Shown: positions 9,542 through 39,840 of the stretch, piece by piece
How the letters are laid out: each line of letters starts with the position of its first letter
Numbering within the stretch: the first letter of the stretch is position 1
Virus record (IMG/VR): IMGVR_UViG_3300027796_000005
Direction: 5' to 3' (one strand)
Source: a virus
Length of the DNA: 42,013 nt
Position numbers and translations under genes: made by a program
Notes under the pieces: model-generated
Told to the model about the DNA's origin: nothing
Seen by the model: only the letters and a program-made list of their open reading frames with translations
The model's database searches: none

Positions 9542-9769
9542 ATGAACGAACAAATTAAAGAATATCAACAAAAAACCGACTTCAAAGCCTATTACGAAGG
9601 TTTAAAAAAACAACCCTCTGAATTGAGGGACCTTATTTGCGATAAATTAGGTATTAGCACTGAAACATTTTATGTCAGGCTCAGGAGTAACTCGTTTGGC
9701 TATCCTCAGCAGGTAGTGATCTCTCAAATTCTCGAACGTCCAATCAATGAATTATTCCCGGAATTATGA
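9542..9769 (+). CDS. Cro-like / small DNA-binding early regulator
   Basis: Internal ATG (MNEQIKEY...) of track ORF 9482..9769. The hydrophobic N-terminal extension from 9482 lies in the promoter region. LGISTETFYVRLRSN resembles an HTH. Confidence 0.55.
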   Translation: MNEQIKEYQQKTDFKAYYEGLKKQPSELRDLICDKLGISTETFYVRLRSNSFGYPQQVVISQILERPINELFPEL

Positions 9770-20795: not shown

Positions 20796-21845
20796 ATGGC
20801 CAAAAAATCAAAACAGAAGTACTATGATTTAATAGTAGACAAGGAAAATAAAACCACCGAAATCCTTATTTATGGGGTTATTGGTGACAGTTGGTTTGAA
20901 GAATCAACAACTGCAAAACAATTTGTTGCCGATTTCCGCAATGCCGAAAAGGATTCAGACCGGATCAACATTCGTCTTAACTCACCAGGTGGATCGGTTT
21001 TCGACGGATTGGCAATATTTAACGCAATTTCAGCCAGCACAAAAGAAATACACACCTATAATGATGGAGTTTGTGCAAGCATGGCCGCTGTATTGCTTTT
21101 ATCAGTTGCAGGGAAAAATGTACATCCAGCATTCAACAGCCTTATCATGCTCCATTCGCCTTCAACCTGTGCATGTGGTAACAAATCACAACTTCAGGCT
21201 GCTATTGACATTCTTGACAAATGCCAGTCAGCACTGGTTAGTTCAATTTGTAAAAATACCGGGTTGGATGCAAAGGATGTTGAAAAGAAGTATTTCGACA
21301 ATAAAGATCATTGGTTTACTGCCGATGAAGCTCTACAGGAAGGATTTTACTCGCAAATTGAAGATGATGTGGCCGAAAATGTTCCTGAGAATGCTTCAAC
21401 CATGAAATTCTCAGACCTCATTAAATATTTCGATCCAAAGAACTCGATTATGTGGCCCAAAGATGAAGAATCATCTGAGGAAGATGAGGAAGAAACTACC
21501 GAAGAAATTTTAGATCAAATAGATATGGATATTAAAAAACTAACGGCGGCTTATAAGTTGCCTGAAGACAGCACTGAGGATGCCATTGTTGCACACGTTG
21601 CAAAGCGTGAGCAGGAAATTGCAGACCTCACCACAGCCAAAACAAAGGCTGAAACCGACCTCGCTACAGCTAACCAAACCATTGTGGACAAAGATGCTGT
21701 AATAGCTACTCTCAAAAAAGAACCAGGCGAAAAAACAGCCACGGTTACTACTGATACCGACACATCAAAAGGAACATCAAAAGATGAACCCAATGATTTT
21801 TGGACTGCGTTACATGCAAATCTTGAAATTGTAAATTCGAAATAA
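20796..21845 (+). CDS. ClpP-like (S14/S49) prohead protease fused to an acidic coiled-coil scaffold-like region
   Basis: IRLNSPGGSVFDGLAIFNAI....NDGVCASMAAVLLL...MLHSPS is a Clp-type serine protease core. The C-terminal half is rich in E/D and coiled coil. Confidence 0.8.
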   Translation: MAKKSKQKYYDLIVDKENKTTEILIYGVIGDSWFEESTTAKQFVADFRNAEKDSDRINIRLNSPGGSVFDGLAIFNAISASTKEIHTYNDGVCASMAAVLLLSVAGKNVHPAFNSLIMLHSPSTCACGNKSQLQAAIDILDKCQSALVSSICKNTGLDAKDVEKKYFDNKDHWFTADEALQEGFYSQIEDDVAENVPENASTMKFSDLIKYFDPKNSIMWPKDEESSEEDEEETTEEILDQIDMDIKKLTAAYKLPEDSTEDAIVAHVAKREQEIADLTTAKTKAETDLATANQTIVDKDAVIATLKKEPGEKTATVTTDTDTSKGTSKDEPNDFWTALHANLEIVNSK

Positions 21846-21846
21846 A

Positions 21847-23082
21847 ATGATCGAAATTAATCAAGCTCTTATTGATGCTGGCATAAAGTACAAAAAACAG
21901 TTACTTTCAATGCCGGTTGCTGCCTTAGCCAAAGTATTCCCTTACATTACTATTGAACCAGGGATTCAAGGTAAAACAATGGGTGGAGTTCTCACTACTG
22001 ATGCGGAGTTAAGGCCATATCGCACTGAAAAAGGTGCAAGTGATAACACTACAATTACTCCATTTGAATGGGAAACCTATTTGGGTGATGTGGTGAAGGA
22101 ATTTGACCCATACAAATTAATGGGTTCATTGTACACCTCTCCTACTGCAACGAAACCTACAGAACAGGAAATTGCTAAACGGGTGGCTTTAGAAATGGCT
22201 AAAAAAGTAGGCCATGCACTTTATCTTCAGCTATTCAAGGCTGTTCGCAATTCTCTGGGTGAAAATACAGCAACCTTATTCAATGGTTATGCTACTCTCA
22301 TTCAAGGTCAGATTACAGCCGGAATCATCTCATTATTAAACGGCAATTATCTTGACATGTCAGGAACTCAAATGACTGTTGACAATGTAGGTGATATTCT
22401 TGTTGGTTTTTGGGAAGGTGCTCAAGAAGAATTAAAAGACATTGAATCATTTATGTACATTCCATCATTTGTTATTGAAATGTACAATAAATGGCATCAA
22501 ACAGAATATGGAGTTACAGCTCCGTGGTCGAATGGGAATGCACCCAAAGTACTTCCGGGAACAAACGACATGTGTACACTAGTTCCTTTAGGCAATATGG
22601 CTGGCACTCCATTTATTTTCATTTCGGTGAAGGAAAATGTGAAGATTGGTGTTGACCAGATGAGTGACACTGAAAAAGTAGAAATCAGAAGGTGCGACAA
22701 TCCTAAGCTTGTTCAATTTTTTATGACCTCATATTTTGGAGTTGGCTTCGAAACCTTCGACAAAACGTTATTCAAAGCAATGCGTTATACATCAAGCGCC
22801 ATTGTGCCTATTGCTAATTTGGCAAACAGCGCTAAAGCTGCTACCACAGCAACCTTTACCTGGACAGCTCCAACCGGGGCAACCACTCAGGTATTACAAC
22901 AGAGCCTCGATGGTTTGGCATGGGCCAACTGTGCAACTGCAGCCGCTATTACCGCAACCTCAGCAACCGCTCAGGCTACCGGCTTAACTGCCGAAACTGA
23001 ATACCAATTCAGGGTTGTTGTAACCGGTGGACAAAATGCCGGTGTATCGAATGTAGTAACCGTAACCACAAGCGCAGCATAG
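21847..23082 (+). CDS. Putative major capsid protein with C-terminal fibronectin-type-III-like domain
   Basis: 411 aa, immediately after the protease/scaffold gene. The C-terminal ATFTWTAPTGATTQVLQQS.DG..W......TGLTAETEYQFRVVV matches the Fn3 pattern. Confidence 0.6.
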   Translation: MIEINQALIDAGIKYKKQLLSMPVAALAKVFPYITIEPGIQGKTMGGVLTTDAELRPYRTEKGASDNTTITPFEWETYLGDVVKEFDPYKLMGSLYTSPTATKPTEQEIAKRVALEMAKKVGHALYLQLFKAVRNSLGENTATLFNGYATLIQGQITAGIISLLNGNYLDMSGTQMTVDNVGDILVGFWEGAQEELKDIESFMYIPSFVIEMYNKWHQTEYGVTAPWSNGNAPKVLPGTNDMCTLVPLGNMAGTPFIFISVKENVKIGVDQMSDTEKVEIRRCDNPKLVQFFMTSYFGVGFETFDKTLFKAMRYTSSAIVPIANLANSAKAATTATFTWTAPTGATTQVLQQSLDGLAWANCATAAAITATSATAQATGLTAETEYQFRVVVTGGQNAGVSNVVTVTTSAA

Positions 23083-23083
23083 T

Positions 23084-23674
23084 ATGTCACTATTTGAAAA
23101 TATGGGATGGACCGACGGACAAATAAACCCGTCGGGCATCGGTACCGAAGTGTACTACATCCCCAAATCTGATTTAGCTGTTGGAGGTTTTCCTTCAGTA
23201 GTTGCAGCTCCTGCAACTGCCGCTGAAAATGTTCAGCTAAGTGGTGATTTCACACTGAAGGCTCTCAAAACTTGGTTCCGTCTCCACTCTACCCAGGGTA
23301 AAGGTGATGTCACATTCGAGCCGGTTGGCGAAAAAGAATGCAAGATGGTGATCAACAAAGGGAAATTTTCTTTTCCTGACATTAGCAATGCGGCCAAAAG
23401 CCATGCAAAACAGGCATTGAATTCAAGCCTCATCTACTGTGTTAAATTACCACATCAGAGCGAAAAACGTTACCTTATTATTGGTGATGCCGATTATGAT
23501 ACCGAAAGTAAAGTAACAGGTAACTCTGGAGCTGAACCCGGAAGCGCTAAAGGATTAACATTCGAAGTCGAATGCCCATCGTTCACTCCGCTACCAGGTT
23601 ATACTGGTGACATCGTTTTAAGCGATGGTACGCTCGACTGTGCTACCGGTGTATTTACACCAACTGCAGGATAA
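23084..23674 (+). CDS. Hypothetical structural-module protein
   Basis: 196-aa ORF directly after the capsid gene and followed by a terminator. Confidence 0.55.
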   Translation: MSLFENMGWTDGQINPSGIGTEVYYIPKSDLAVGGFPSVVAAPATAAENVQLSGDFTLKALKTWFRLHSTQGKGDVTFEPVGEKECKMVINKGKFSFPDISNAAKSHAKQALNSSLIYCVKLPHQSEKRYLIIGDADYDTESKVTGNSGAEPGSAKGLTFEVECPSFTPLPGYTGDIVLSDGTLDCATGVFTPTAG

Positions 23675-23700
23675 GTAACTTTAAAAACTTAAATAATAAA

Positions 23701-23745
23701 CCCCGGCTCGTCCGCGATGACTATCGGGATCGGGCTGGGGTTTTT
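23701..23745 (+). terminator. Intrinsic terminator
   Basis: CCCCGGCTCG (23701-10) pairs with CGGGCTGGGG (23731-40), including G-U wobbles, followed by TTTTT. Confidence 0.7.
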
Positions 23746-23757
23746 AATTCAAAGTGT

Positions 23758-24549
23758 ATGAATGATACAACAAAAACAACAGAATATCAGAAGGAAATCA
23801 ATGATTGGTTTGCTTCCGGCAGAGATTTCAACGAGGGCTACTTGCTTTTCGTTCGCTTCTCTCACAACCGCGCGTTAGCTATGCAGCTGGCCCGTAAGGG
23901 TGCAACAATGCAAAGTAAACTGGAGTATGAATTGACCAAGATACTCGAACGGGGATTGATAATCGAACGTCCTGTTTTGCCGATTGGCCAGGTAAAAAAA
24001 GTAGTTGCACCGGTAATTGAAAAGAAAGCTGCAATTGCTTCAGAGTTAGCTCCTATTGATAAAATCTTAAACAAACAGGAAAAAGTTCTGGTTTGGCACG
24101 ATGGGAAAGTAGACTATGAGTCACTTAGCGATCAGCAAAAAGCTTGGTACGATTCCAACCGCGATATGTATAAGGAAATGCGCAGCTGGCATGAAAAAAT
24201 GAAGCTGGCCACTACCGATGAGGAACGTGCCGGTTTCCGATCAAAAGTGGTTGAATTTGATGATCAAATTCGCGAAAACTGGAAACAGTTCGATGCAACG
24301 ATTGAAGTGCCGAAAGGATCTGCAGATGATAAAAAAGAGAAAAAAGAATCTGATCCGGTAAAGGCAATTACAAACGCCCGGTCCTACCTTTCTAAAAATC
24401 TTCCAAAGCTTGAAAATTTAACGGGTAAAAAACTCGATAAAATGAAAGCTGAATTGAAGGCACGCTATGAGTCAATTATTGCTGCCAGCCAGGCTGTCGA
24501 TGAAAAGACAATTGCAAAACTCAAATCCTGTGGAATTATCGTGGAATAA
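23758..24549 (+). CDS. Hypothetical protein
   Basis: 263-aa ORF, charged and helical. No motif recognised. Confidence 0.55.
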   Translation: MNDTTKTTEYQKEINDWFASGRDFNEGYLLFVRFSHNRALAMQLARKGATMQSKLEYELTKILERGLIIERPVLPIGQVKKVVAPVIEKKAAIASELAPIDKILNKQEKVLVWHDGKVDYESLSDQQKAWYDSNRDMYKEMRSWHEKMKLATTDEERAGFRSKVVEFDDQIRENWKQFDATIEVPKGSADDKKEKKESDPVKAITNARSYLSKNLPKLENLTGKKLDKMKAELKARYESIIAASQAVDEKTIAKLKSCGIIVE

Positions 24550-24988
24550 CGATATAGCTGTTAAGCTTTCACAGGATATACAGAGTCACGACGTTTTTGA
24601 TTTTATCCTGGATGAATGTAAAAGAGCTGATAAATTGATTATCGGCTCTTTTGCCATGAATGAAGCTTATGTGAGGCGGATCATCCGCAACCGGGAGAGG
24701 ATCTCTTCCCTTGAAGTGTTTCTCGACCTAACGGTTGCCGATCGGAGCCCGTCGAACACCATCTATATTTCAGAAAACGTCGATGCCCTGTACTTAACCA
24801 GCAACCATTCAAAATTTATTTACTGCCGTGGAGAAAAGCAGATGCTGGCCGTGATGAGCAACAATGCAACCAATAACCACCGGTTCGAACTTCAGGTATT
24901 TATACGTGAAAAAGGGTTGATTGCCGATTTCCTGCAACAATACGAAATTATGAAAGCTGAAAGTTTGCGCTATGGAGCTGACCAATGA
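24467..24988 (+). CDS. PLD-like (HKD-type) domain protein; start uncertain
   Basis: ADKLIIGSFAMNEAYV...LTSNHSKFIYCRGEKQMLAVMSNNATN resembles a single H-x-K...S-x-N PLD/Nuc motif with non-canonical spacing. The ATGs at 24467 and 24500 overlap the upstream gene, and GTG at 24530 is an alternative start. Confidence 0.4.
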   Translation: MSQLLLPARLSMKRQLQNSNPVELSWNNDIAVKLSQDIQSHDVFDFILDECKRADKLIIGSFAMNEAYVRRIIRNRERISSLEVFLDLTVADRSPSNTIYISENVDALYLTSNHSKFIYCRGEKQMLAVMSNNATNNHRFELQVFIREKGLIADFLQQYEIMKAESLRYGADQ

Positions 24989-25247
24989 CCAACTTACACA
25001 GATTGAAGAATACGCTTCGTTGTTCTGCAGCATCGATGAAATTGCGTTGCTTATCGATGTTCGCGAGGGTGATCTGCGTCGGGAGATCCGTAACAAAAAC
25101 AGCGATGCAGCCAGGTACTATTTCCGCGGAAAACTAACAACTCAAGTAAAACTAAGGCGGCAAACCAAACTATTCGCCGAAAAAGGAAGCCCCCAGGCTG
25201 AGCAGACCATGAAACAACTGTACGAAAAACAATCCAGCAATGAGTAG
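24972..25247 (+). CDS. Small HTH-like protein in the packaging module
   Basis: 91 aa. IEEYASLFCSIDEIALLIDVREGDLRREI resembles a DNA-binding HTH. Located upstream of the terminase genes. Confidence 0.4.
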   Translation: MELTNDQLTQIEEYASLFCSIDEIALLIDVREGDLRREIRNKNSDAARYYFRGKLTTQVKLRRQTKLFAEKGSPQAEQTMKQLYEKQSSNE

Positions 25248-25812
25248 AGAGCATCCAATAGATAGGTTTCGAAACGTGATGTTTAACAATGCGAAGGAAA
25301 CTGAACTTACTGAAGCTGAACAAAAACAGCTTACCAGATATAGAGATGCATTCGTTCAGAGCCTTGACAATCCACTGATTCGTGATACAGAACTGCGCGA
25401 TTACCTCATTAATAATTACCGGATCTCCGACTCTCAAGCTTACCGTGATCTGGCAAACATTCGCATTCTCCTGGGCAATGTCCGAAATGCCAATAAGGAA
25501 TGGGTACGCTATATGGTTATTGAAGGCTTAAAAAAGCAATACTTTGATGCCGATGCTGAAGGTAAGCAACGTGAAGCGATCATGGCACTTGATAAACTCG
25601 GTAAATACAATCGTCTCGACAAAGAAGATCTAGAGGAACTTCCATTTGATAAGGTGATCCCGGTCGACTGGGAAGCAACAACAGATATTTCAGTACTCGG
25701 AATCAAACCGATGGAAAACAGAAAGGAAGAAATTCAGAAGCTCCTTAAAAAATACGCTGATGATATCGAAATTGAAGATATCGACTACCAGGAAGTAACC
25801 GACAATGACTGA
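25240..25812 (+). CDS. Putative terminase small subunit (positional call)
   Basis: 190-aa ORF whose end overlaps the terL start by 8 nt. No diagnostic motif recognised. Confidence 0.4.
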   Translation: MSREHPIDRFRNVMFNNAKETELTEAEQKQLTRYRDAFVQSLDNPLIRDTELRDYLINNYRISDSQAYRDLANIRILLGNVRNANKEWVRYMVIEGLKKQYFDADAEGKQREAIMALDKLGKYNRLDKEDLEELPFDKVIPVDWEATTDISVLGIKPMENRKEEIQKLLKKYADDIEIEDIDYQEVTDND

Positions 25813-27415
25813 AAAGAAAAAGATATACTTCAATAACCCTCAGCTGGAGGTAATGGCCACAGCAGCTCACACCACCGTTTTTTTAGGCGGTCGCCGGTTG
25901 GGTAAAACGCATGGCATTGCCGCTCCCTGGTTACTTCGCATTACTCAAGCCATGCCCGGCTGTGCCATTGGTATAATTGGCGCCAGTTTTCAGCAGATCC
26001 TCACCCGTACGCTTCCAGGTACATTCAAGGCCCTCGAATCTATGGGCTATTACCGGAACGTTCACTATACCGTTGGCATTGTTCCTCCCAAAAGCTGGCG
26101 CGATAAGATGGTCAGGGAGCCGATTAAGTACGATCATGTTGTTTCCTGGTACAACGGAACTGTTTGGTACTTGATCTCTCAGGACATTCCCGGATCATCC
26201 AACTCGTTAACCCTGCAGGCCATCTTTGCCGATGAAGCCAAATTCCTCGATTTTGAAAAGCTGAAGGATGAAACCTTCCCGGCCAATGGCGGGTATAAAG
26301 GCCCGTGGAAAAATTGCCCCTGGTTAAATTCAATGCTTTTCATCTCGGATATGCCAACCAGCAAAAAAGGAAGCTGGCTGCTGAACTTCCGTGAAAAGAT
26401 GGACCGGAAAGTAATTGACGCAATTCACGATCTGGTTCGCGAAATAGACCGTTTACGAAAGCTTCCTGAAACAAAATACACTAAAAGAGAGCTGCGTAAT
26501 TGCAGGCTAGAAATAGCCAAATTGCGCAGCATTGCAGTTTATTACCGCGAAGTATCAACGCTCGAAAATCTTGAGATGCTGGGCAAAAAGTACATAGCTC
26601 AAATGAAGCGCGATCTTCCTCCGCTGGTATTCCTCACCTCCATACTTTGCATGCGCCCTGGGAAGTTGAAGGATGGCTTCTACCCATCGCTGACTGATGA
26701 CCATCTGTACAAGGCTTTCGATAATACCTACCTCAAAAGCCTTGAATATGACGTTGACAAGGCGAGGAAAGCTAAATGCCGGCAGGATGGCGATCTTGAT
26801 CCAAAGAAGCCTATATGCGTTGCATTCGACTACAATAGCAATATAAACTGGTTGGTAGCCGGTCAGGCCGATGGAACGAAAATAAAGGTCATCAAATCGT
26901 TCTACGTAAAGTATCAACGAAAGCTCCGGGAGCTGGTCGATGACTTCTGTGACTACTACCAATACCATCAAACCAGGGAAGTTGTTTTTTACTACGACAA
27001 TACAGCACTTGGAAGCAACTACGCTGTGAATGAGGAAGATTTTGCAACGGTTATAAAAGAACAGTTTGGGAAAAACGGATGGCGCGTACATGCTGTTTAC
27101 ATGGGCCAGCAACTCAGGCAGCATGAAAAATACACCATGATCGATCAGGCTTTCAAAGGTCAGAAATATAAGATGCCAATGATTAACGAACCCAATAATG
27201 AAGCGTTAATACTTGGTTTGCAACATGCCGGTGTTCGCATTGGCCGTCGTGGTTGGGAAAAGGATAAGACTGATGAGAAGAAAGAAGAAAATGAAGAGAG
27301 CCGCCTGGAACATCGTACCGATGGAACCGACGCCTTCGATACGTTAGTAATTGGAATGATTTTGTATCCTCACAGTGGGGTAAGTTCAGCGGTTGGGGGT
27401 AGTAGTTTCAAATAA
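25805..27415 (+). CDS. terL: Terminase large subunit
   Basis: 536 aa. Walker A is FLGGRRLGKTHG and Walker B-like is AIFADEAKF. Size and nuclease-half layout are typical of TerL. Confidence 0.8.
   Translation: MTEKKKIYFNNPQLEVMATAAHTTVFLGGRRLGKTHGIAAPWLLRITQAMPGCAIGIIGASFQQILTRTLPGTFKALESMGYYRNVHYTVGIVPPKSWRDKMVREPIKYDHVVSWYNGTVWYLISQDIPGSSNSLTLQAIFADEAKFLDFEKLKDETFPANGGYKGPWKNCPWLNSMLFISDMPTSKKGSWLLNFREKMDRKVIDAIHDLVREIDRLRKLPETKYTKRELRNCRLEIAKLRSIAVYYREVSTLENLEMLGKKYIAQMKRDLPPLVFLTSILCMRPGKLKDGFYPSLTDDHLYKAFDNTYLKSLEYDVDKARKAKCRQDGDLDPKKPICVAFDYNSNINWLVAGQADGTKIKVIKSFYVKYQRKLRELVDDFCDYYQYHQTREVVFYYDNTALGSNYAVNEEDFATVIKEQFGKNGWRVHAVYMGQQLRQHEKYTMIDQAFKGQKYKMPMINEPNNEALILGLQHAGVRIGRRGWEKDKTDEKKEENEESRLEHRTDGTDAFDTLVIGMILYPHSGVSSAVGGSSFK
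27383..27415 (+). repeat. 33-bp direct repeat, copy A (3' end of terL)
   Basis: AGTTCAGCGGTTGGGGGTAGTAGTTTCAAATAA matches 27778-27810 at 30 of 33 positions. Confidence 0.85.
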
Positions 27416-27752
27416 CTGGTGTAAAAGTATATTTTAATGTTATCCCAAAAGAGAAATCAGATAAAACAGGTTCTTCAAGGTATCCAAGTAAAGTTTCATT
27501 ATAGTATAATCCATTAATGTATGGATTATCGTCTACATGCCTCACTAAAAAAGTTTGCTTTGCATCATTTATTGTAGGCTCTCGTTTTAGATGAGCTCTA
27601 AGCGCGTCCATGATCAAATTTTCTTTTTGTAATAATAATTGCTTTACCGATTCTATATACAAATCACCCATTTTGAAGCCATATTCAAAATTAATATGAT
27701 GTTTATCAATTTCTTCTGGGGTGTAATTTTGATTGCCATTAATGGTTTCCAT
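27408..27752 (-). CDS. Hypothetical protein (114 aa), island cassette 1
   Basis: ORF convergent with terL, overlapping its end by 8 nt. Shares its leader and the first 8 nt (ATGGAAAC) with the next cassette. Confidence 0.55.
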   Translation of the reverse strand: METINGNQNYTPEEIDKHHINFEYGFKMGDLYIESVKQLLLQKENLIMDALRAHLKREPTINDAKQTFLVRHVDDNPYINGLYYNETLLGYLEEPVLSDFSFGITLKYTFTPVI

Positions 27753-27777
27753 AATTCAATTTTAATAATTATTAATT

Positions 27778-27810
27778 AGTTCAGCGGTTGGAGGTAGTAG
27801 CTTTAAATAA
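27778..27810 (+). repeat. 33-bp direct repeat, copy B (orphan copy of the terL 3' end including its stop)
   Basis: AGTTCAGCGGTTGGAGGTAGTAGCTTTAAATAA. It sits immediately 3' of the stop of the minus-strand ORF 27812..28117. Confidence 0.85.
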
Positions 27811-27811
27811 G

Positions 27812-28117
27812 TTACAGTCTATCTTTAAATTCAATATTCATTTTTATGATTCCAGCAATATGTAGAGCTAACTCTTTTACCTTATTGTTAAAATGCGCCT
27901 TAAAAATTGCTTTGATATAAACATCTCTTGAGTATCTCATATCTTTACCCCACTCAACATCTAAAAGCACAAATCTGATAGTATTATAATCCGTCAAATA
28001 AAAATCAACCTTGCCAAAATTTTTAGTTAAAATGTCACTAATCATTATAACGGCTTCACTAACATAATCTTCAAGTGTTTTCAATAATTCTTTTTGATCT
28101 TCAAAATAAGTTTCCAT
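27812..28117 (-). CDS. Hypothetical protein (101 aa), island cassette 2
   Basis: ORF with leader GATTCAAATTTATTAATTATT, similar to the leader of 27408..27752. No protein similarity between the two cassettes was seen by eye. Confidence 0.55.
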   Translation of the reverse strand: METYFEDQKELLKTLEDYVSEAVIMISDILTKNFGKVDFYLTDYNTIRFVLLDVEWGKDMRYSRDVYIKAIFKAHFNNKVKELALHIAGIIKMNIEFKDRL

Positions 28118-28147
28118 GATTCAAATTTATTAATTATTTTTCGTTCA

Positions 28148-28206
28148 CATTTTAATTAATGTTAATGAGGTCTCCACGTTTATGGGTTGCCGCCCTGTGG
28201 AGACCT
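28148..28206 (-). promoter_or_regulatory. Intergenic element: CATTTTAATTAATGTTAAT box plus 10-bp-stem hairpin containing GGTTGCCGCC
   Basis: AGGTCTCCAC (28168-77) pairs with GTGGAGACCT (28197-206). The box at 28148-66 duplicates the start region of the upstream gene, and on the minus strand reads ATTAACATTAATTAAAATG-TGA (start-stop). Confidence 0.55.
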
Positions 28207-28213
28207 TCATTAT

Positions 28214-28411
28214 TTAAGCTAGTTCACACTGAACTTCACCATCAATAGTCTCCAGCTTGAACAGGTAACACCCTTCCTCACTGAAATCTTTGTTCACTAT
28301 CACAGCATCGTTGTTGGTAGCTGCAATGTACACCGGTCCATCCGGTTTTGTTTTGCAATCGCCGTAACACTTTACAGCCAATTGCTTCGCTTCGAATACA
28401 TTCATTTTCAT
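28214..28411 (-). CDS. Hypothetical protein (65 aa)
   Basis: ORF between two repeated intergenic elements. Confidence 0.5.
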   Translation of the reverse strand: MKMNVFEAKQLAVKCYGDCKTKPDGPVYIAATNNDAVIVNKDFSEEGCYLFKLETIDGEVQCELA

Positions 28412-28442
28412 TTTATTAATGTTAATACTTCCGGTTGCCGCC
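28409..28442 (-). promoter_or_regulatory. Second copy of the TTAATGTTAAT + GGTTGCCGCC bipartite element
   Basis: CATTTTATTAATGTTAAT lies at 28409-26 and GGTTGCCGCC at 28433-42. Compare with 28148-66 and 28185-94. Confidence 0.55.
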
Positions 28443-28446
28443 GGGG

Positions 28447-28671
28447 TTAAAAAAGTTCTTTCAATTCTACCTCTAAGGCTTTCGAAATCTTGTAATAAAT
28501 ATCTATTCCGGTACTATACCGGCCCTTTTCGATACGAGAAACGTTTTGCTGATTTAACTCGGATAAAGCTCCAAGTTGATCAGCTGTCAGGTTCTTTTGC
28601 TTCCGTAGTTGTTCAATTCGCTGGCCAATACGTCGGCGGTTTTCGCGCAATTCAATTTCGTTAATCATCAT
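28447..28671 (-). CDS. XRE-family HTH regulator (Aca-like position)
   Basis: 74 aa. IGQRIEQLRKQKNLTADQLGALSELNQQNVSRIEKGR is a canonical HTH_3. Its start overlaps the stop of the upstream acidic ORF. Confidence 0.8.
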   Translation of the reverse strand: MMINEIELRENRRRIGQRIEQLRKQKNLTADQLGALSELNQQNVSRIEKGRYSTGIDIYYKISKALEVELKELF

Positions 28672-28978
28672 CTTCCTCCCATTCTTCTATGTCAATATCT
28701 GCCATGTCGTTTTCAAGCATCCGTTCATCTAGTGCCAGAAAGTTCCAAATGTCTGTAATTATGGCAATGTGTTCCTTCTCTGAAGGCCGCTCGCCATCGA
28801 TGTACTGCACTTCAGCAATGTTCGCAAAGAACTCATCAAAATCGGCAAAGTAGCCATCATCGAGAGAGTAGCGAACAAATACGCGCGGGTAATTCATTTT
28901 AAAAATGAATTCTTCATCAGGAAAAAACATCTTATTTTCTCCCACAAAATAGTTCTTAAATTTTTCTGGTATGTTCAT
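28661..28978 (-). CDS. Highly acidic small protein (105 aa)
   Basis: Internal ATG (MNIPEKF) chosen because the longer track form (to 29080) runs through a GC hairpin and into the upstream gene. Has a D/E-rich C-terminus (...DMADIDIEEWEEDDD). Confidence 0.5.
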   Translation of the reverse strand: MNIPEKFKNYFVGENKMFFPDEEFIFKMNYPRVFVRYSLDDGYFADFDEFFANIAEVQYIDGERPSEKEHIAIITDIWNFLALDERMLENDMADIDIEEWEEDDD

Positions 28979-28991
28979 ATTGAAAATGTTA

Positions 28992-29012
28992 GCCCCGGTG
29001 GTTAGCCGGGGC
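28992..29012 (-). other. Intergenic GC hairpin
   Basis: GCCCCGG pairs with CCGGGGC around a 7-nt loop, between the stop at 29022 and the start at 28978. Confidence 0.6.
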
Positions 29013-29021
29013 GGTTTGTTG

Positions 29022-29639
29022 TTATTTTTCTTCACCATATTCAAAGGTTGATTCATCGGTCCATGTGCCAACAAATTCAATCAAAGCACTGCGCCAGCTA
29101 TCTTTGACTTCATATACGAAGCTTACATTTTTGTCAGTTACACCTTCATTCATAATTTTAGAAATAGTTGATTCATAGGCTTGCATTTTGCTATCAGCTA
29201 ATATTTTGAATGAATATGTTTTAACTCCATCATTGCCTTTTATTTTTGAAACCAAAACATCTAAGGTCACTACATACCAACCTTTTTCTTGGTGATACAT
29301 ATCGGCTAAAGCTGCTTTTTCTGCTTTTTCTGCTTTTTGTTGTTTTTCGAATTCTGCTTTTACTTTGTTTTCAGCCACAATAATGTTATGCGCTTCTAAT
29401 GTTTTAGCCATTGCTGAATAGACGTTGATCCTGGTAGTCGAACAGTTAGTAGTTGCAAGCTCTGATTTTATTTCAACAGTACCATTAAAATAATTATTGA
29501 AAAAATTCTTGCAATAATCATTGCAAACTAACGGATAAGAATTTCCACGGAATTTTAAACTGTTTACGAAATTAACAGCTTCTTCTGCATTGCTTACTAA
29601 AGCTGTTTGATTGAAGTAATTGAGAACTAAATTTTTCAT
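29022..29639 (-). CDS. Hypothetical protein (205 aa)
   Basis: ORF with a central KAEFEKQQKAEKAEKAA helix. No family recognised. Confidence 0.55.
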   Translation of the reverse strand: MKNLVLNYFNQTALVSNAEEAVNFVNSLKFRGNSYPLVCNDYCKNFFNNYFNGTVEIKSELATTNCSTTRINVYSAMAKTLEAHNIIVAENKVKAEFEKQQKAEKAEKAALADMYHQEKGWYVVTLDVLVSKIKGNDGVKTYSFKILADSKMQAYESTISKIMNEGVTDKNVSFVYEVKDSWRSALIEFVGTWTDESTFEYGEEK

Positions 29640-29910
29640 TTTGTTTTGCCCGGTTGTTTATCCTGGTTGGCTCGACCAGTTTTAATTTATTAACATGGTG
29701 TAAAGATAACATCATATTTGATGTAAAACAATAGGCAAATGAAAATAATAAATCAAATTTGATGTGTTATAAAACACACAGTATTTTCGAGCGAGTTTTG
29801 AATAAGTAAATTTTCGTGTAGTTTTTTAAGGGAGAGGAATTTATGTTTCAAATCAAATGAAATTGTATGAGCGCTGATCTATCGTATAGATATTTTTAGA
29901 ATAAAAACAG

Positions 29911-30008
29911 AACCGGTACGGTACTGAAGCGCGAATTCCTTATCCAAGCGCCGGGGCCAGGCACAAGGCCTCCCCTTTGCGGTTGGTAAGGTCCAACATC
30001 AAACCCCC
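29911..30008. other. GC-rich structured segment inside a 449-bp non-coding gap
   Basis: Local GC is far above the flanks. GGGGCC...GGCC(T)CC forms a hairpin. Contains GAATTCCTTAT, the same ATTCCTTAT core as 19053 and 19164. Confidence 0.35.
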
Positions 30009-30088
30009 TATGTTCTTTCAGATTATCGGCACATTCTCAAAGAAAAGGGAAAGAAAACTAAGCCATCAAGTTTGCAAACTTCAATATT

Positions 30089-30529
30089 TTACATATAATC
30101 ATCAATCGTTGCCAGTTCCCGGGCGGGTATGGCTGCGCTCTCTGGTCTGTTTACCTTTTCACGGTGTTCTTTCATCTGATCGGCTGTAATTACCTGAGTA
30201 TTTGCAAACAGGTAACAGATAGGCCAGTACTTGTATTCTTCGGGTTCGTTGCTTCCTTCTGGTACTTGTTCACCTTGTCGGGGTTGTCCCCAAATAATAA
30301 AAGCCTTTTCACCTTTTCGCACGGTTGCGCCTTCCTGCTTCCATTGTCCAAAGGTTTTAAACTCCTCAATGTCGGGGTGTTGTTCCATATACATATCTTT
30401 TAAACCTTCGTTAACGCTGTCAATAGCGCCCTCTTTTACAAGTAATCGCAATGTTTGAGAAATAGCGATCAATCCTTTACGGTTGGTTAAGTATTGCTCT
30501 TTTCTTGTATTTTTTGTATTTTTATCCAT
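30089..30529 (-). CDS. ArdC-N-like (DUF1738-type) ssDNA-binding domain protein, stand-alone
   Basis: FKTFGQWKQEGATVRKGEKAFIIWG matches the F.T..QW...G..V.KGEK...I core of the ArdC N-terminal domain. There is no metalloprotease half. Confidence 0.5.
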   Translation of the reverse strand: MDKNTKNTRKEQYLTNRKGLIAISQTLRLLVKEGAIDSVNEGLKDMYMEQHPDIEEFKTFGQWKQEGATVRKGEKAFIIWGQPRQGEQVPEGSNEPEEYKYWPICYLFANTQVITADQMKEHREKVNRPESAAIPARELATIDDYM

Positions 30530-30595
30530 TGTTTTGAATTTTTAGGGTTAAACATTCTAAAAGTTTTTAAGAAAGCGGAGGCGGTCACCTCCGCT
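30530..30595 (-). promoter_or_regulatory. Re-used gene leader, copy A (TGTTTTGAATTTT / GTTAAAC / GGAGGCGGTCACC hairpin)
   Basis: AGCGGAGG (30574-81) pairs with CCTCCGCT (30588-95). The 13-mers TGTTTTGAATTTT and GGAGGCGGTCACC are repeated exactly at 31068 and 31100. Confidence 0.6.
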
Positions 30596-30604
30596 TTAAT
30601 TGTT

Positions 30605-31066
30605 TTAAGCTTCAATTTCTCTTTTAATTGCTTCCTCTTTTGTTTCAATCCTACCCAAAATAAAGGAAAGAACTTCACCAACAATCACCGGATTAGCAAT
30701 TTTGAAAACTTCATTGTCCCTATAGTTTTCTTTATCGGTAATAACAATGAAATAACGTTCATTAGAGAAATCGTTTGCGGCTGCTAATTGTGCAATGTTG
30801 TCAAGGTGTTTGAAAATACTTTCTTTATTGTCCTGAATTACTGCAAGTTTTCTAATCAAATCTTTCTTTCTATTGAAATACTGAATTTTATTCTCTAGGT
30901 CTGAAGGAATTACAGAAAGTTTCTGCTTTAGTTCCTCGTTTTCTTTTTGGAGTTCTTCCAATGATTTTGGAACTTCGGGTGTAGTTATTTCTTTGGCTGT
31001 TTCAGCCTGGGCATTGTTTACCCCTTTCGCAACCGTTAACGGTGCTTTTGAATTTTCTTTACTCAT
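30605..31066 (-). CDS. Hypothetical coiled-coil protein (153 aa), first gene of the island
   Basis: ORF with an LEELQKENEELKQKL segment. No family recognised. Confidence 0.55.
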   Translation of the reverse strand: MSKENSKAPLTVAKGVNNAQAETAKEITTPEVPKSLEELQKENEELKQKLSVIPSDLENKIQYFNRKKDLIRKLAVIQDNKESIFKHLDNIAQLAAANDFSNERYFIVITDKENYRDNEVFKIANPVIVGEVLSFILGRIETKEEAIKREIEA

Positions 31067-31112
31067 TTGTTTTGAATTTTACAGTTAAACTTCAATTTTG
31101 GAGGCGGTCACC
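31067..31112 (-). promoter_or_regulatory. Re-used gene leader, copy B
   Basis: TTGTTTTGAATTTTACAGTTAAAC...GGAGGCGGTCACC lies directly upstream (in the minus sense) of the ATG at 31066. Confidence 0.6.
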
Positions 31113-31404
31113 CCCTTAAATCGTTACACTAAATTACTAAATATCCAAACAAAAAACAAACTCAAATAACTGACTTACTGTATATTAACATAAATAAACT
31201 ATGTGTATAGTAACATCAAAATCAACATTGAACAGAAAAATATTTTTTGACTAAAAATTCATCTTATGTAGGGATCGTTCAAAATATCGCATCCCTCGCA
31301 TGAATTTTTTTATAATAATCTGATTTTCATTATTTTTTTTGGGGGTTAAGGGGCTTTTTCTCCCCTTCTGTCTAATAAGACCCCGCCCCGCCCTGTCCCA
31401 GTTT

Positions 31405-31571
31405 GGCAATTGCCTATTTTGTTTTTCTCGAAATATGCCTGACGGTTGCCAAAATTTCGGCAGTCGTCGTTATGGTGATCTCATGCGATAGCATTCCATA
31501 TTGATATGGCAATTGCCATTTTCAAACAAAACAAGGGGCTTCGTTATAGTGATCTTATGCGATAGCATTCC
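31405..31571. repeat. Operator-like repeats in the divergent control region
   Basis: Palindrome GGCAATTGCC occurs at 31405-14 and 31508-17. The 31-nt direct repeat TCGTTAT(G/A)GTGATCT(C/T)ATGCGATAGCATTCC occurs at 31467-97 and 31541-71. Confidence 0.7.
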
Positions 31572-31627
31572 TATTCTCTGTCCTTTTCCTGCCTCAATTA
31601 CCTTACTACATTCGATCAAAAAAGAAT

Positions 31628-31849
31628 ATGGTACATTCATCTGACTTACATAAGCTTGTAGAGAAAGGCGAATTCTCTTTTGAATATATTGAAAAAGACG
31701 GATCAGTATTGATTGGTGAACGGTGTATTTGCACAAGTTGGCACTCTGAAGGAACTACAATGAATGTAAAGTTCTGTGATAGTGGAGAAATAAGAACGCT
31801 TACACGTAAAGCTATAACTAAGTACAACGGGCAGGAGGTCTCAATCTAA
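31628..31849 (+). CDS. Hypothetical small protein preceding the portal gene
   Basis: 73-aa ORF whose stop overlaps the portal start (TAATG). Confidence 0.5.
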   Translation: MVHSSDLHKLVEKGEFSFEYIEKDGSVLIGERCICTSWHSEGTTMNVKFCDSGEIRTLTRKAITKYNGQEVSI

Positions 31850-33210
31850 TGGATATATTAACAGTAAACAATACAACTTACTTACCTGAGGCTAAGGCAA
31901 TCATCATTCAGACACCATCTATTGAGGCATTCAATGAGCCTGATAGTACGATTGATGTAGGTAAGTATAAGAAGATAGTTCCAAATGGAGTCAACAACGA
32001 TATGCCACAGCAGGTAATTGCTAAGGTAGAGAAGTGTGAGGTAGTTGGCTCTAACTTGCAATTCAACATCATGGCGGCTTATGGTCAGGGTATCAAAGCA
32101 TTCAGGAAAATTGGCAAAGGTAAGGATGCTACTTATGAGGAAATTGAGGAAGGTGAGATATACGACTTTCTATTAGACAACAACATCAATCTGTTTGCCC
32201 TTGAGTCATTCACTGATATGCATACCTTTTTCAATGTATACCCCGAAATCATCCTTTCGAAAGACTACTCTAAAATTGTTTCCTTACGAGCAAAAGAGGC
32301 GGCATTCAGTCGCTGGCAAAGTATGGATAAGAATACAGGTCGGATAATGAAACACTTCTATTGTGGAAAGTGGGATAATTCACCTACTGAAGATGACATC
32401 ACAGAAACAGATGTTCTTGACCGTTATAACCCATTACATGACCTGCAGCAGCGAATTGAAAAAAGAGGGGATGTACCTTATCGCTTCATTGTGCCTGTTT
32501 CCTTCTCTACTCCTGGTCGGTCATATTATCAGCGTGCTTATTGGTGGTCAATTTTCCTAAGTGGTTGGTACGATTATTTAATGATGGTTCCGAACTTTAA
32601 AAAGGCATTGATGAAAAATCAATTGGGAGTTCGTTACATCATCTATTTGACAGAAAAATATTGGGAACAACTTTTTGAAAATGAAAATATAGATATCAAT
32701 GACAAAGAGGCTGTAGCTACCAGAAAATTGCAGGAAAATACCAACTTTCAAAACTTCCTGACTGGTGAAGAAAATGCAGGCAAGGGAATTACTGCGCTGA
32801 AAAAAATGGTGCCCTCTGCAAATGGCTCTGTTGAAGAAAAATTCATCGAAATTATTGAAGTGCCTAACTCAATGAAAGGTGGTGAATTTATAGCCGATTC
32901 ACAAGAAGCCGCTTCAATCGTTTCGTATGCTATGCAGGTGCATCAACCGCTGATCGGCAACCCTCCGAAAGATTCAGGCTCGTTGTCAGGCTCGGATGCC
33001 CGTGAGCGTTTCATGATGAAAGTAGGTTTGATGGCTGTGTATCGCGATCAGATCCTAAGCGTTCTTCACCTGATCAGGCGTTTCAACAACTGGGGTAACG
33101 ACATCGTTTTCAAAATACCTGATTTCGAGTTCACAACGCTTGATGATAATAAATCAGGCAAACAACCTGTAATTCAAACTGCTCAAAAAGAAGAAAATGC
33201 TGGTAAATAA
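31849..33210 (+). CDS. Putative portal protein
   Basis: 453 aa and the first large plus-strand gene after terL (ignoring the island). Size and position fit a portal, but no diagnostic motif was recognised. Confidence 0.55.
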   Translation: MDILTVNNTTYLPEAKAIIIQTPSIEAFNEPDSTIDVGKYKKIVPNGVNNDMPQQVIAKVEKCEVVGSNLQFNIMAAYGQGIKAFRKIGKGKDATYEEIEEGEIYDFLLDNNINLFALESFTDMHTFFNVYPEIILSKDYSKIVSLRAKEAAFSRWQSMDKNTGRIMKHFYCGKWDNSPTEDDITETDVLDRYNPLHDLQQRIEKRGDVPYRFIVPVSFSTPGRSYYQRAYWWSIFLSGWYDYLMMVPNFKKALMKNQLGVRYIIYLTEKYWEQLFENENIDINDKEAVATRKLQENTNFQNFLTGEENAGKGITALKKMVPSANGSVEEKFIEIIEVPNSMKGGEFIADSQEAASIVSYAMQVHQPLIGNPPKDSGSLSGSDARERFMMKVGLMAVYRDQILSVLHLIRRFNNWGNDIVFKIPDFEFTTLDDNKSGKQPVIQTAQKEENAGK

Positions 33211-36270: not shown

Positions 36271-36354
36271 GTGCCTGCACGCCATAGCCGTAGGCGACGG
36301 CGTGTCCTTTTCCCCACCCCATCACCTTCTTACATTGCTGAAAATCTTACAGCA

Positions 36355-39300: not shown

Positions 39301-39840
39301 TGGGGAATTGCGGGTATGGCCAAATTCGCTGTTGTATCGGGTTTAATGTACGCTGGTATTTCAGCTCTAGAGGGCCAGGTTAAAAAGAATATTGGAAATG
39401 GCAAAGCAGCAGGTGGTTTCGCCAATCCAGGCGGAAAGTACGATCCTGATGGAATCTATCACAAAGGAGAATTCATCAACGCCCAGGAATCGGTCAATAA
39501 CCCTACCGTCCGGCCGGTCCTTGATATCATCGATTTTGCCCAGAAAAACGGCACAGCGGCCAGTATCAACCTTCCCGCGGCAATGGCATCAAAAGGTTTG
39601 CTACCCGGCAAAGGGAAATCTTCAGGTGGGTTTGCTTCCTCTTCTGGATCCTCATCAGCTGAATCCGGCTCTGACTATTCCGGCAGCTACGATTCCGAAA
39701 CCAAAGCGATCATGAAGGGTGTTTTTAATTTTTTAGAAAAACTCGATAAGGATGGGGTAAAATCGAACATCAATACTCGCGAGATATTCAAATCTGAATC
39801 AGATTATCAGGACTCAATCAAAACCTCACAATTTTCATAA
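36355..39840 (+). CDS. Tail tape measure protein
   Basis: 1161 aa from ATG 36355. Has long coiled coils, TP901-type core-like segments (KVAGKLGISAQEDVEGFVKAADKIAVAL..DLGGN) and central TM segments. The track start at 36271 is a GTG inside the terminator region. Confidence 0.8.
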   Translation: MANERATAQVFLDGKQAEGVIDMLKTKANQLKQAIVEAGQAGDHVTMKKLEKELKGVNSSMNTLKKETFDVQKVLDNLSGASINDLNKALNKTNAEMKRMGRQDPGYGALKTQAKLLKAELAGVNNEMKVQQSWISRVGDGFNKYFGIITAGAASLAGAVMGFKKASGAYAEFTDDVADVQKTTGLAKDQVIELDQALQQVDTRTAQEDLLGLAKVAGKLGISAQEDVEGFVKAADKIAVALTEDLGGNIEESINDIGKLTDIFHLKENYGMEESMLKVGSAINSLGAASTANEGYIVEFTKRMAGVAPAANVSIDQIMGLGATLDQFGQTSEISSTTISAVLVDMFKSPGQYAEIAGISIKDFNTLLKTDSNEAFLKFLEGLKGNNGGLSEMANKLDGLGLEGKRSISVLGVLSNNTQTLREQQALSSQEFEKGTSLTNEFNIKNETTQAKLDKSRKEMALMTRELGENLSPAMLVSTNGVTYFIKGLSALIKLFKEHGTEILLIAGAIAAYTIALQVNTIKKKLNNTELILSNRELKLNAIWTKASSAAQKAWGTAVAVATGKITIAEIVTKLWNNTLKANPIGAVIALIMLLVAGTVLLVKHMNAQTVAQKAVNDVTEQAKRDIVEQKVKTEELLAVAKDEKKSLDERKAALAELNKISPEYFGNLSIEKSTTEDLTKAGEAYIANLEKQALIKAAQAKIDDLRTANANKEIDIQTKKTKWWESEAGAAKRANKAIVENKDAIKALQGIVDKNKNKTITSTVIASTEPTNPADPTKPKPVTDYEAANKKALEALETAHANEILNLKKYYSDKEDLDKEFKARMLASELAYLRLKDQMEPDELKKIELQSQIIDKQNEYTAALKEAAPAMLQNQDATQKTNEILLESSKLMGVAAKKQSDATSALDKLTTKQKQQADTIQMIGNVMTDYITSAIDGSTDQYQTFGNTLILMSLQILKNMVPVWAAQILGLSLASGESAATWGIAGMAKFAVVSGLMYAGISALEGQVKKNIGNGKAAGGFANPGGKYDPDGIYHKGEFINAQESVNNPTVRPVLDIIDFAQKNGTAASINLPAAMASKGLLPGKGKSSGGFASSSGSSSAESGSDYSGSYDSETKAIMKGVFNFLEKLDKDGVKSNINTREIFKSESDYQDSIKTSQFS

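Follow-up and report, generated by a model that had tools for sequence, protein, structure and literature searches.

The phage genome analysed here is the whole of a metagenome contig of 42,013 bp (IMG/VR record IMGVR_UViG_3300027796_000005; hereafter the window), in which the genes for the large terminase (terL) and the portal protein are separated by an island of eight open reading frames (ORFs) on the minus strand. On balance we consider it probable that this interval is a slot holding two opposite-strand counter-defence units. Unit A would consist of o153 and o146, the second of which carries an ArdC-N domain. Unit B would be a self-regulated operon encoding o105, a protein resembling the anti-CRISPR protein AcrIIC2, and xre74, an Aca-like regulator of the XRE type.

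The eight ORFs (114, 101, 65, 74, 105, 205, 146 and 153 amino acids, aa) span positions 27408-31066, and their orientation is convergent to that of terL and divergent from that of the portal operon. Two stretches are non-coding, one of 449 bp (29640-30088) and one of 561 bp (31067-31627). An initial annotation of the window had listed the eight ORFs with these sizes, the 449-bp gap and a divergent control region of 560 bp; all of them were recovered, the control region being measured at 561 bp. The GC content was 0.32-0.38 in the island vs 0.42-0.46 in its flanks. When all island proteins were searched against Pfam, PHROG, PADLOC and NCBIfam, only the XRE and ArdcN domains were matched.

Likeness of o105 to AcrIIC2

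The gene o105 (28661..28978, minus strand) encodes an acidic protein of 105 aa with a pI of 4.05 and a net charge of -20. The mechanical ORF list gives it 139 aa from a TTG; its 21 homologues align from the ATG at 28978. In the AlphaFold2 (AF2) model (pLDDT 84.8, pTM 0.74) a beta-sheet is followed by a long C-terminal helix. When this model was compared with the PDB by Foldseek, the top 15 matches were all AcrIIC2 chains (TM 0.50-0.56, 18-21% identity). The alignments with AcrIIC2 covered 106-119 columns, one chain being aligned over 83 columns with a TM of 0.40. In BFVD the best match of the model was an entry named 'AcrIIC2 protein'. Because no PDB entry resembled the AcrIIC2 fold at the time of its structure determination (PMC6594998), the fold match can be regarded as specific.

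The sequences were compared directly, using an AcrIIC2 sequence that had been verified against PDB 6JD7. Pairwise BLASTP of o105 with AcrIIC2 gave an E of 4e-5 over the N-terminal 46 residues. The full-length alignment had a z-score of 8.4-9.1 and its score was reached by 0 of 2000 shuffles, and unrelated island proteins that served as controls gave z-scores of about 0. The signal was present across the branch of the o105 family carried by phages and mobile genetic elements (MGEs) of other kinds, with z-scores of 3.2-8.2, and was weaker in other branches. The residues by which AcrIIC2 holds the bridge helix of Cas9 are E17, E24, D108 and N112 (PMC6594998). Their aligned counterparts in o105 are E13, E23, E85 and E89/N90, an equivalence taken from the alignment and not from a complex; E23 is invariant in the family (22 sequences). 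Taken together, these comparisons moderately support the view that o105 is a remote homologue of AcrIIC2. The initial annotation had guessed at an acr/aca operon from the gene layout only, a guess that is now backed by homology, AcrIIC2 being the top structural match.

AcrIIC2 is encoded in the acrIIC2-acrIIC3-aca3 locus of Neisseria meningitidis prophages; it is an acidic dimer of 123 aa which binds the Cas9 bridge helix and blocks the loading of guide RNA. Like AcrIIC2, o105 is small, acidic and prophage-borne, and has a beta-sheet wrapped around a C-terminal helix. Both contain the collinear motifs GE..EF..YPR..R.S.DD and then D.ML..D.AD..W.DD, both have acidic residues at the positions that contact Cas9, and in both cases an HTH (helix-turn-helix) gene of ~70 aa lies immediately downstream in the same operon. 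Unlike in the acrIIC2 locus, the promoter is separated from the Acr-like gene by one more gene, o205, and the regulator gene has three ORFs behind it. The identity is ~20%, with a sequence similarity that is seen only in a directed comparison, the phyla differ (Bacteroidota vs Proteobacteria), and the o105 family has a near-neutral chromosomal branch. A description of AcrIIC-type inhibitors in Bacteroidetes was not found in the literature searched. In Bacteroidales, active Cas9 systems of type II-C are known (PMC9367070).

The regulator gene and its candidate operators

The start of xre74 (28447..28671, minus strand), which encodes an XRE-type HTH regulator of 74 aa (Pfam HTH_3, 3e-11), overlaps the stop of o105 (28671 vs 28661-28663), as the initial annotation had seen when it described an XRE gene starting within the end of a very acidic 105-aa ORF. 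The same overlap between the stop of an o105 homologue and the start of a regulator gene was found in the loci L056 and L058-60, where the regulator is of the XRE type, and in L061, where it looks like a ribbon-helix-helix (RHH) protein. The XRE protein of L056 is 56% identical to xre74, and that of L058-60 is an unrelated protein of 126 aa. In L061 the partner is a 69-aa ORF with an RHH look by eye and no Pfam match. Both HTH and RHH Acas are known (PMC13551039), and AcrIIC2 was itself discovered via aca3, an adjacent HTH gene of 70 aa (PMC6538845). Since an integrase and CI/Cro-like module is present separately, at 7261-10314, xre74 is not regarded as the main lysogeny switch.

Two palindromic operator candidates, ACATCATATTTGATGT at 29709-29724 and AAATCAAATTTGATGT at 29750-29765, were located 41 bp apart, starting ~70 bp upstream of o205. 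No other intergenic copy with at most one mismatch occurs in the 42 kb. In L056 two such candidates, TTATCAAATCTGATAA and TTATCAAATTTGATAG, lie likewise 41 bp apart upstream of a homologous cassette (L056:5392-6532). There they are followed by the leader hairpin and the GGGCAAAACAAAATG start context that the window also has, a 177-aa gene, the hairpin GCCCCGG...CCGGGGC, the o105 homologue and the XRE gene. The terL product of L056 is only 23% identical to that of the window, and the cassette is shared nonetheless. The first gene of L056 is unrelated to o205 and its product has an acidic tail; an ASCH-domain gene lies downstream. The combination of operators, hairpin, o105 and XRE gene is a conserved portable cassette with a swappable first gene. 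As an observation in its own right, the 177-aa protein of L056 is another candidate cargo gene product.

The operator core ATCA-N4-TGAT is kept between the window and L056 and the flanks change along with the regulator, as expected if the XRE protein binds the sites. We infer from the sequences that xre74 binds the two operators. The sites bound by Aca1, Aca2, Aca10 and Aca14 are inverted repeats in the acr promoter. The operon of the window resembles Aca-controlled operons in its small downstream HTH regulator, its two upstream inverted repeats, its exchangeable cargo and its conserved regulator and promoter; as among Acas, an RHH-type regulator takes the place of the HTH protein in one relative. 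Unit B thus appears to have the anatomy of an Aca-controlled operon, with xre74 as its predicted regulator.

The first gene of the operon, o205 (29022..29639, minus strand, 205 aa), is exchangeable cargo. Its 17 homologues are unannotated and share a C-terminal domain of ~90 aa, to which alternative N-terminal domains are joined. No fold match in the PDB was obtained with its AF2 model (pLDDT 88.4), the best E being 0.45. Genes for SSB, full ArdC, N6_Mtase, DpnD-PcfM, DUF932, DUF6908, stand-alone ArdC-N and HNH/SNF2 proteins were found as neighbours of the o205 homologues. In L049 and L050 an o105 homologue directly follows the o205 homologue, and in L047 a distant terL has an o146-like gene and an o205 homologue downstream of it.

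The ArdC-N gene o146 and its partner o153

The 146-aa product of o146 (30089..30529, minus strand) matched Pfam ArdcN with 24.5 bits (cut-off 22.6) at model positions 58-96 of 123, in agreement with the earlier assignment of this ORF to a stand-alone ArdC-N domain. Judged by Pfam, the C-terminal zincin-like metalloprotease domain is absent and there is no second domain. The o146 family comprises more than 110 clusters of ~140-aa proteins, most of them flagged PF08401 and some named ArdC by their source. Some of its members lie on contigs of up to 7.4 Mb, which suggests that they are prophage-borne. Seven gap proteins of relatives of the window also matched ArdcN (PF08401), the best with 1.6e-7.

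Immediately upstream of o146 lies o153 (30605..31066, minus strand), which encodes a coiled-coil protein of 153 aa with homologues of ~150 aa in 102 representative clusters. It was present in 8 of 28 relative loci, each time immediately upstream of o146 and on either strand. No family match and no meaningful sequence match in the PDB was obtained for o153, the PDB matches being coiled-coil noise. A 171-aa protein that accompanies ArdC-N in Bacteroides prophages was considered as a homologue of o153, and the similarity was not significant.

ArdC-N is a domain that binds single-stranded DNA (ssDNA) (PMC6222260), and o146 shares it with the ArdC proteins of conjugative plasmids (pSa, R388) and with polyvalent proteins of phages and conjugative elements. 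Like ArdC, o146 sits among establishment or anti-restriction genes, and its relatives are coupled to orphan N6 methyltransferases. Unlike plasmid ArdC, it lacks the C-terminal metalloprotease, is encoded by a phage and not in a plasmid leading region, and has the coiled-coil protein o153 as its partner. A full ArdC (ArdcN with MPTase-PolyVal) was seen only in L046, beside homologues of o205 and o105 and with SSB and N6_Mtase genes nearby; it lies two genes from the N6 methyltransferase. The putative link of o146 to anti-restriction thus comes from gene context, namely the coupling to N6 methyltransferases. By binding ssDNA, o146 and its constant partner o153 would most likely shield or mark entering or replicating phage DNA against restriction.

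The terL-portal interval in related phages

The left border of the slot is terL (25805..27415, plus strand, 536 aa), which was identified by tblastn to annotated terminases and whose product matched PHROG 2, 'terminase large subunit', with 5.4e-10. The right border is o73p (31628..31849, plus strand), a conserved small gene and the first of the portal operon, of which a homologue lies directly 5' of the portal gene in most relatives and in Bacteroides prophages. The portal gene (31849..33210, plus strand, 453 aa) was recognized by tblastn homology to annotated portals of Polaribacter, Microcystis and Cellulophaga phages and is syntenic with a DUF6712 gene; its product had no Pfam or PHROG match.

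A search with terL gave 45 related viral loci. The initial annotation had taken terL and the portal gene to be neighbours as a rule, which fails for this lineage: in all 28 relatives that hold both genes they are 0.7-9 kb apart. In most cases the GC content of the gap is below that of the remaining locus. In the window the slot has a GC content of 0.35 vs 0.41 for the genome, and nearly all relatives follow the same trend. Among 23 non-redundant genomes, 116 of the 214 gap ORFs of at least 50 aa (54%) had no homologue in any other genome. The flanks are syntenic throughout the relatives, with terS and terL on the left and o73p, the portal gene and the next two genes on the right, so that the junction proved to be a variable hotspot once the relatives were aligned. 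Minus-strand genes make up 24% of the gap ORFs across the genomes vs 8 of 9 in this genome. The most widespread gap family is o146, which occurs in 11 of the 23 genomes.

A Pfam scan that covered 145 gap ORFs of the relatives matched ArdcN (7), P22_AR_N (6), HTH_3 (4), RNase_T, DUF4468 and BRCT (3 each), PAPS reductase, KilA-N and TerB (2 each), and SocA/Panacea, HIRAN, N6_Mtase and DUF932 (1 each). The cargo thus includes antirepressor N-domains, KilA-N, HTH genes, a DEDDh exonuclease, an N6 methylase and a Panacea antitoxin. In the slot of L011 (IMGVR_UViG_3300027265_000045) PADLOC found Csf1, Cas11, Csf2/Cas7 (3.7e-76), a PAPS-reductase/cysH-like gene and Csf3/Cas5 (1e-47); by these matches L011:13246-16575 would be a type IV-B-like CRISPR-Cas effector module.

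The same plan of the slot was found in gut Bacteroides prophages, a more distant lineage whose terL and portal are 35% identical to those of the window. Their order begins with terS-terL, continues on the opposite strand with a 171-aa gene, an ArdC-N gene, an N6 methyltransferase gene and a 60-aa gene, and ends with the o73p-like, portal and DUF6712 genes. The ArdC-N gene is 44% identical to o146 and its stop is overlapped by the start of the N6 methyltransferase gene. This unit was seen at L082:6408-8278 in a gut metagenome, with a protein named from Bacteroides nordii. As the protein of the ArdC-N unit is indexed in 64 blocks of the collection, this lineage is common. The presence of an opposite-strand ArdC-N unit in its slot implies that the unit between terminase and portal is old.

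Throughout the lineage, the interval between terL and the portal gene serves as a slot in which accessory genes are exchanged. The island of the window has two layers, an old core formed by o153 and o146 and a mobile part, from o205 to o114, that is specific to this genome. The initial annotation had described an insert wedged between the two genes. Its accessory nature stands; it is not a single recent insert, the o153-o146 part being old and widespread. As to the further expectation of an undescribed anti-defence, exclusion or defence module, the cargo is new, part of it being a distant member of a described family. The idea that the island ORFs encode structural proteins was rejected, the genes being missing from most relatives.

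A model for the two units and the points against it

Unit B would comprise, in this order, a promoter with two palindromic operators, o205, a hairpin, o105, xre74 and o65; o101 and o114 would be two separately acquired cassettes behind it. On entry or induction, a strong promoter upstream of o205 would fire. Dimers of o105 would then bind the basic, nucleic-acid-binding surface of a host defence protein through their acidic N-terminal hairpin and C-terminal helix, the prime candidate for the target being the bridge helix of a type II-C Cas9. As xre74 accumulates, it would bind both operators and shut the operon off after an early burst, in an Aca-like manner. The product of o205, exchangeable cargo in the first position, might be a second inhibitor. 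Late transcription would oppose the island, which lies head-on to terL, and this argues for early or lysogenic expression. Predictions of the model are the binding of xre74 to DNA, the time at which the genes are expressed, the target of o105, and whatever o205, o153, o65, o101 and o114 may do.

Several observations weigh against this reading. The Foldseek probability of the match of o105 to AcrIIC2 reaches 0.94, yet the E-values are only 0.13-0.85 (0.16-0.85 for the PDB chains). The hhalign match between the o105 family and AcrIIC2 (E 0.0017, over EFvvhtrYPRflaRksfDD) spans 23 columns only, and in a PDB-wide sequence search the profile of the o105 family misses AcrIIC2. As for Unit A, o146 aligns only with the middle third of the ArdcN model, and a sequence search of the PDB with its profile finds no structure of ArdC. 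Except for ArdcN, no island protein matches PADLOC or a named anti-defence family, xre74 matching generic HTH models only. The operators lie upstream of o205 and not directly upstream of o105, and three ORFs after the regulator are unusual for acr-aca operons. Opposite-strand genes of low GC content in a temperate phage also have the look of morons expressed in the lysogen.

The remaining point against it comes from cellular genomes. A scan of one genome per species found homologues of o105 in 20 genomes, all of them of Bacteroidota and mostly of Marinilabiliales (genera Marinifilum, Saccharicrinis, Labilibacter, Carboxylicivirga and Plebeiibacterium). The family is not confined to mobile elements: 14 of these 20 loci are a conserved chromosomal block across several Marinilabiliales genera. 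In this block the o105 homologue is followed by genes for a CPBP/Rce1-like protease and a DUF6320 protein, a 426-aa gene and often a RelA_SpoT gene of ~326 aa (loci L063, L065, L066, L068, L070-L077, L080 and L081). The chromosomal homologues have no adjacent regulator gene. They are near neutral (net charge 0 to -6) and without the acidic C-terminal helix, vs -10 to -20 for the MGE-borne branches, which carry the motif ALDERxLExDL, resembling AADDLMLNEDAADL of AcrIIC2. Given this syntenic chromosomal branch, the fold may originally have served a purpose unrelated to CRISPR. The existence of a cellular relative lowers the confidence in Cas9 as the target; it also fits a capture and acidification of the gene by mobile elements. 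The RelA_SpoT neighbour was considered as a lead to a toxSAS toxin with its antitoxin and set aside, the constant neighbour being the CPBP protease gene and the RelA_SpoT gene lying 2.8 kb off in a larger block.

This branch is a rare opening to ask where an anti-CRISPR fold came from. We put forward one course of events tentatively, as possible rather than probable. The AcrIIC2 fold would have a traceable cellular origin: a near-neutral gene of Marinilabiliales would have been captured by phages and other mobile elements, acidified by the addition of the acidic C-terminal helix and brought under the control of an Aca-type regulator, in a portable cassette whose first gene can be freely exchanged. 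On the same tentative terms, o205, the 177-aa gene of L056 and o153 would represent undescribed anti-defence families and the slot would be a source of new ones.

Alternative explanations

If the island genes were morons expressed in the lysogen, the prophage would transcribe them in opposition to its silent late operon. They would serve the host by superinfection exclusion, or by defending it from other phages and from plasmids, and would not be counter-defence genes of this phage. This is the serious rival because the slot of L011 carries a CRISPR-Cas effector. It is favoured by the temperate nature of the phage, with its integrase and CI/Cro-like module, by the position of the island on the opposite strand with a low GC content and its own regulator and hairpins, and by the defence-type cargo in the slots of relatives (the type IV-B-like effector of L011, Panacea antitoxin, TerB). 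However, the two recognizable proteins, the AcrIIC2-like one and the ArdC-N one, point to counter-defence, and the neighbours of o205 and o105 homologues elsewhere are establishment or anti-restriction genes. Nor do the island proteins match PADLOC beyond the generic HTH models of the XRE protein, and we regard the moron explanation as rather unlikely. Less probable again is a role of o153-o146, and perhaps of o205, in the DNA metabolism of the phage, that is, in protecting ssDNA during replication, recombination or packaging with no part in defence. That ArdC-N binds ssDNA (PMC6222260), that nothing in the slot is better conserved than the o153-o146 pair, which is located beside the packaging genes, and that o205 homologues occur near SSB and SNF2/HNH genes would all agree with such a role. 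The pair is, however, missing in about half of the relatives and therefore dispensable, and the coupling of ArdC-N to N6 methyltransferases, seen in the Bacteroides prophages and for the full ArdC in L046, is an anti-restriction signature.

The overlap between o105 and xre74 would also suit a toxin-antitoxin or addiction pair with the gene order of HigBA, or a small regulatory switch with o105 as anti-repressor, the remaining ORFs being unrelated passengers. The two genes form a conserved unit, the type of the DNA-binding partner varies (74-aa XRE, 126-aa XRE, RHH-like) as it does in toxin-antitoxin families, and xre74 has weak NCBIfam similarity to the antitoxins HipB and MqsA. Against this, known toxins are usually basic and o105, with its pI of 4.05, is unlike toxins of the RelE/HigB type; it matches no toxin family and its fold matches an anti-CRISPR protein. 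An XRE protein of 74 aa leaves no room for a toxin-neutralizing domain, and members of the o105 family also occur alone in chromosomes, with no regulator. We give this explanation little credence. The view that o65, o101 and o114 are not genes at all and that recombination left decaying spacer DNA in this part of the island seems very improbable. It would account for the lack of homologues of the three ORFs anywhere searched, for the omission of o65 from the genes called by the source, for the very low GC content of o101 and o114 (0.27-0.30) and for the recombination scar formed by a duplicated terL end. It is countered by the way in which the ORFs tile the strand without gaps, by the leader and start context that o114 and o101 share, and by the calling of these two as genes by the source; ORFans are moreover the norm in this slot (54%). 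The reading of the slot as a site of two counter-defence units is retained as the preferred one.

Comparison with other phage hotspots

Morons and hypervariable slots are known from phage morphogenesis modules, for example the lambdoid morons and the acr loci in the head-gene cluster of Mu-like Pseudomonas phages. As at those sites, genes of lower GC content with their own control signals lie between conserved late genes and their presence varies among close relatives. Unlike those sites, the slot described here is never empty in the relatives, can be as long as 9 kb and contains a semi-conserved core that is old; in this genome nearly all of it lies on the opposite strand.

Anti-defence hotspots, acr-aca operons and ArdC-N domains all belong to kinds already known. 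What is new is the remote AcrIIC2-like family in phages of Bacteroidota with its chromosomal branch, its portable cassette and the partners o205 and o153, and also the recognition of the terL-portal slot as a site of conflict genes across a broad lineage. For phages of Bacteroidota the island offers anti-defence candidates: an AcrIIC2-like protein with predicted contact residues, a likely regulator with its operators, and a short ArdC-N module. The slot spans phages from marine Marinilabiliales to gut Bacteroides, and the accumulation of conflict genes in it makes the o205 and o153 families good targets for screening. Should the predictions fail, what remains is a clear case of an ordinary accessory hotspot.

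The tail of the island

Behind the regulator gene lie three small ORFs. The first, o65 (28214..28411, minus strand, 65 aa), is an ORFan 3' of xre74 and the weakest gene call of the set; it had no family match. It is followed by the ORFans o101 (27812..28117, minus strand, 101 aa) and o114 (27408..27752, minus strand, 114 aa), the latter convergent with terL with an 8-bp overlap of the gene ends. The protein of o114 had no match in Pfam, PHROG, PADLOC or NCBIfam and forms a singleton cluster at 90%. Neither o101 nor o114 had a relative in the 45 terL loci, and scans of the IMG/VR collection, which does not include the window itself, with o205, o105, o114, o101 and o65 gave zero relatives.

The leader and first codons of o101 resemble those of o114, the shared leader comprising 47 nt with 77% identity (27727-27773 vs 28092-28138). 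The two were considered as paralogues, which was rejected (BLASTP E 0.21). A copy of the last 33 nt of terL (27383-27415) was found at 27778..27810 on the plus strand, 395 bp downstream and 91% identical. Its three differences are all synonymous for ...SSAVGGSSFK*, and the direct repeats bracket the o114 cassette. The C-termini of the terL products of all 44 relatives differ from that of the window. The units 27383-27777 and 27778-28142 have both ends in common and different gene bodies, which is read as a scar of cassette shuffling; the duplicated terL end and the shared leaders look like the mark left by such shuffling between very close relatives.

Non-coding elements

GC hairpins were found in the intergenic spaces at 28169-28205, 28992-29012, 29663-29679 and 30572-30597, all on the minus strand. 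The first, GGTCTCCAC...GTGGAGACC, was read from the sequence 3' of o65 and is likely to mark the end of the o205-o65 transcription unit. The second, GCCCCGG...CCGGGGC, separates o205 from o105, and the same stem occurs at the same position in L056. The third is a leader hairpin (CTGGT-CGAGCC-AACCAG) upstream of o205 that is conserved in L056, and the fourth lies between o153 and o146. Besides the leader shared by o114 and o101, a leader of 23 nt is re-used by o146 and o153 (83%). Hairpins and re-used leaders between the genes had been noted in the initial annotation and were located accordingly; the number of hairpins does not exceed chance, 6 terminator-like ones being found vs 4.2 +/- 2.0 expected. 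Their significance comes from their intergenic position and from the conservation of two of them in L056, and not from their number.

A conserved non-coding element at 31336..31446 on the plus strand is made up of a hairpin with its T-run and, after it, the boxes GACCCCGCnCCGCnCT, TTTGGyAATTrCC and CGtAATATGC. It is 72-86% identical in L031, L017, L040, L002, L011 and L008/9 and was aligned also in L015; copies lie at L031:11843-11885, L011:17068-17109, L017:16044-16140, L040:3857-3936, L002:5473-5534 and L008:13251-13330. A consensus RNA structure was not found for the element. It is possibly a terminator plus a promoter or regulator site, the promoter being late or of the extracytoplasmic function (ECF) type. 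The palindrome GGCAATTGCC occurs twice in the control region of the window. A protein of 182 aa encoded at 9766-10314, beside the lysogeny switch, has a Cys-rich N-terminus and an HTH of the LuxR/GerE type (4.9e-15) and weakly resembles sigma-70 region 4. As a candidate late activator, it might recognize the conserved boxes at 31336-31446.

Upstream of o73p lie two 31-nt direct repeats on the plus strand (31467-31497 and 31541-31571), 94% identical and 74 bp apart. An equal match was not obtained in 100 shuffles, and the pair is present only in this genome and absent from its relatives. Conservation in the 449-bp gap is limited to the 120 nt nearest o146, and a structured RNA in this gap was rejected (z -1.05). 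Rfam and tRNA scans of the island found nothing; a match to CRISPR-DR32 (26.8 bits vs a cut-off of 48) lies inside the coding sequence of o146 and was put down to chance. A scan for sigma-70 promoters found 16 vs 16.2 expected, and it is uninformative because this promoter type is the wrong one for Bacteroidota.

The phage genome

The first 75 bp of the window equal its last 75 bp, and because of this overlap the contig is probably a complete circular assembly. Near-identical DNA was not found among 50,697 phage records. The phage is temperate and tailed, with a tyrosine integrase gene at 7261-8532, a divergent cluster of HTH genes forming a CI/Cro-like lysogeny module at 8766-10314, a ClpP-type prohead protease gene at 20796-21845 and a tape-measure protein gene at 36271-39840; the lineage is one of temperate siphophages of Bacteroidota. 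Most genomes with o105 homologues belong to Marinilabiliales, which suggests that the host probably belongs to this order.

The gene order at 20796-27415 is unusual. The prohead protease gene and a gene for a 411-aa protein with an fn3-like C-terminus precede terS-terL, and the portal gene comes after terL. In the Microcystis phage Mea-Yong924-1 the genes for protease, capsid, terS and terL have the same order and the portal gene lies ~12 kb off. Across the contig junction (1-388 and 41731-42013) there are at least 2-3 tandem copies of a unit of ~246 bp that are 89-93% identical. These repeats lie in or beside the ORF at 63-890 and are invisible to Tandem Repeats Finder on the linear sequence.

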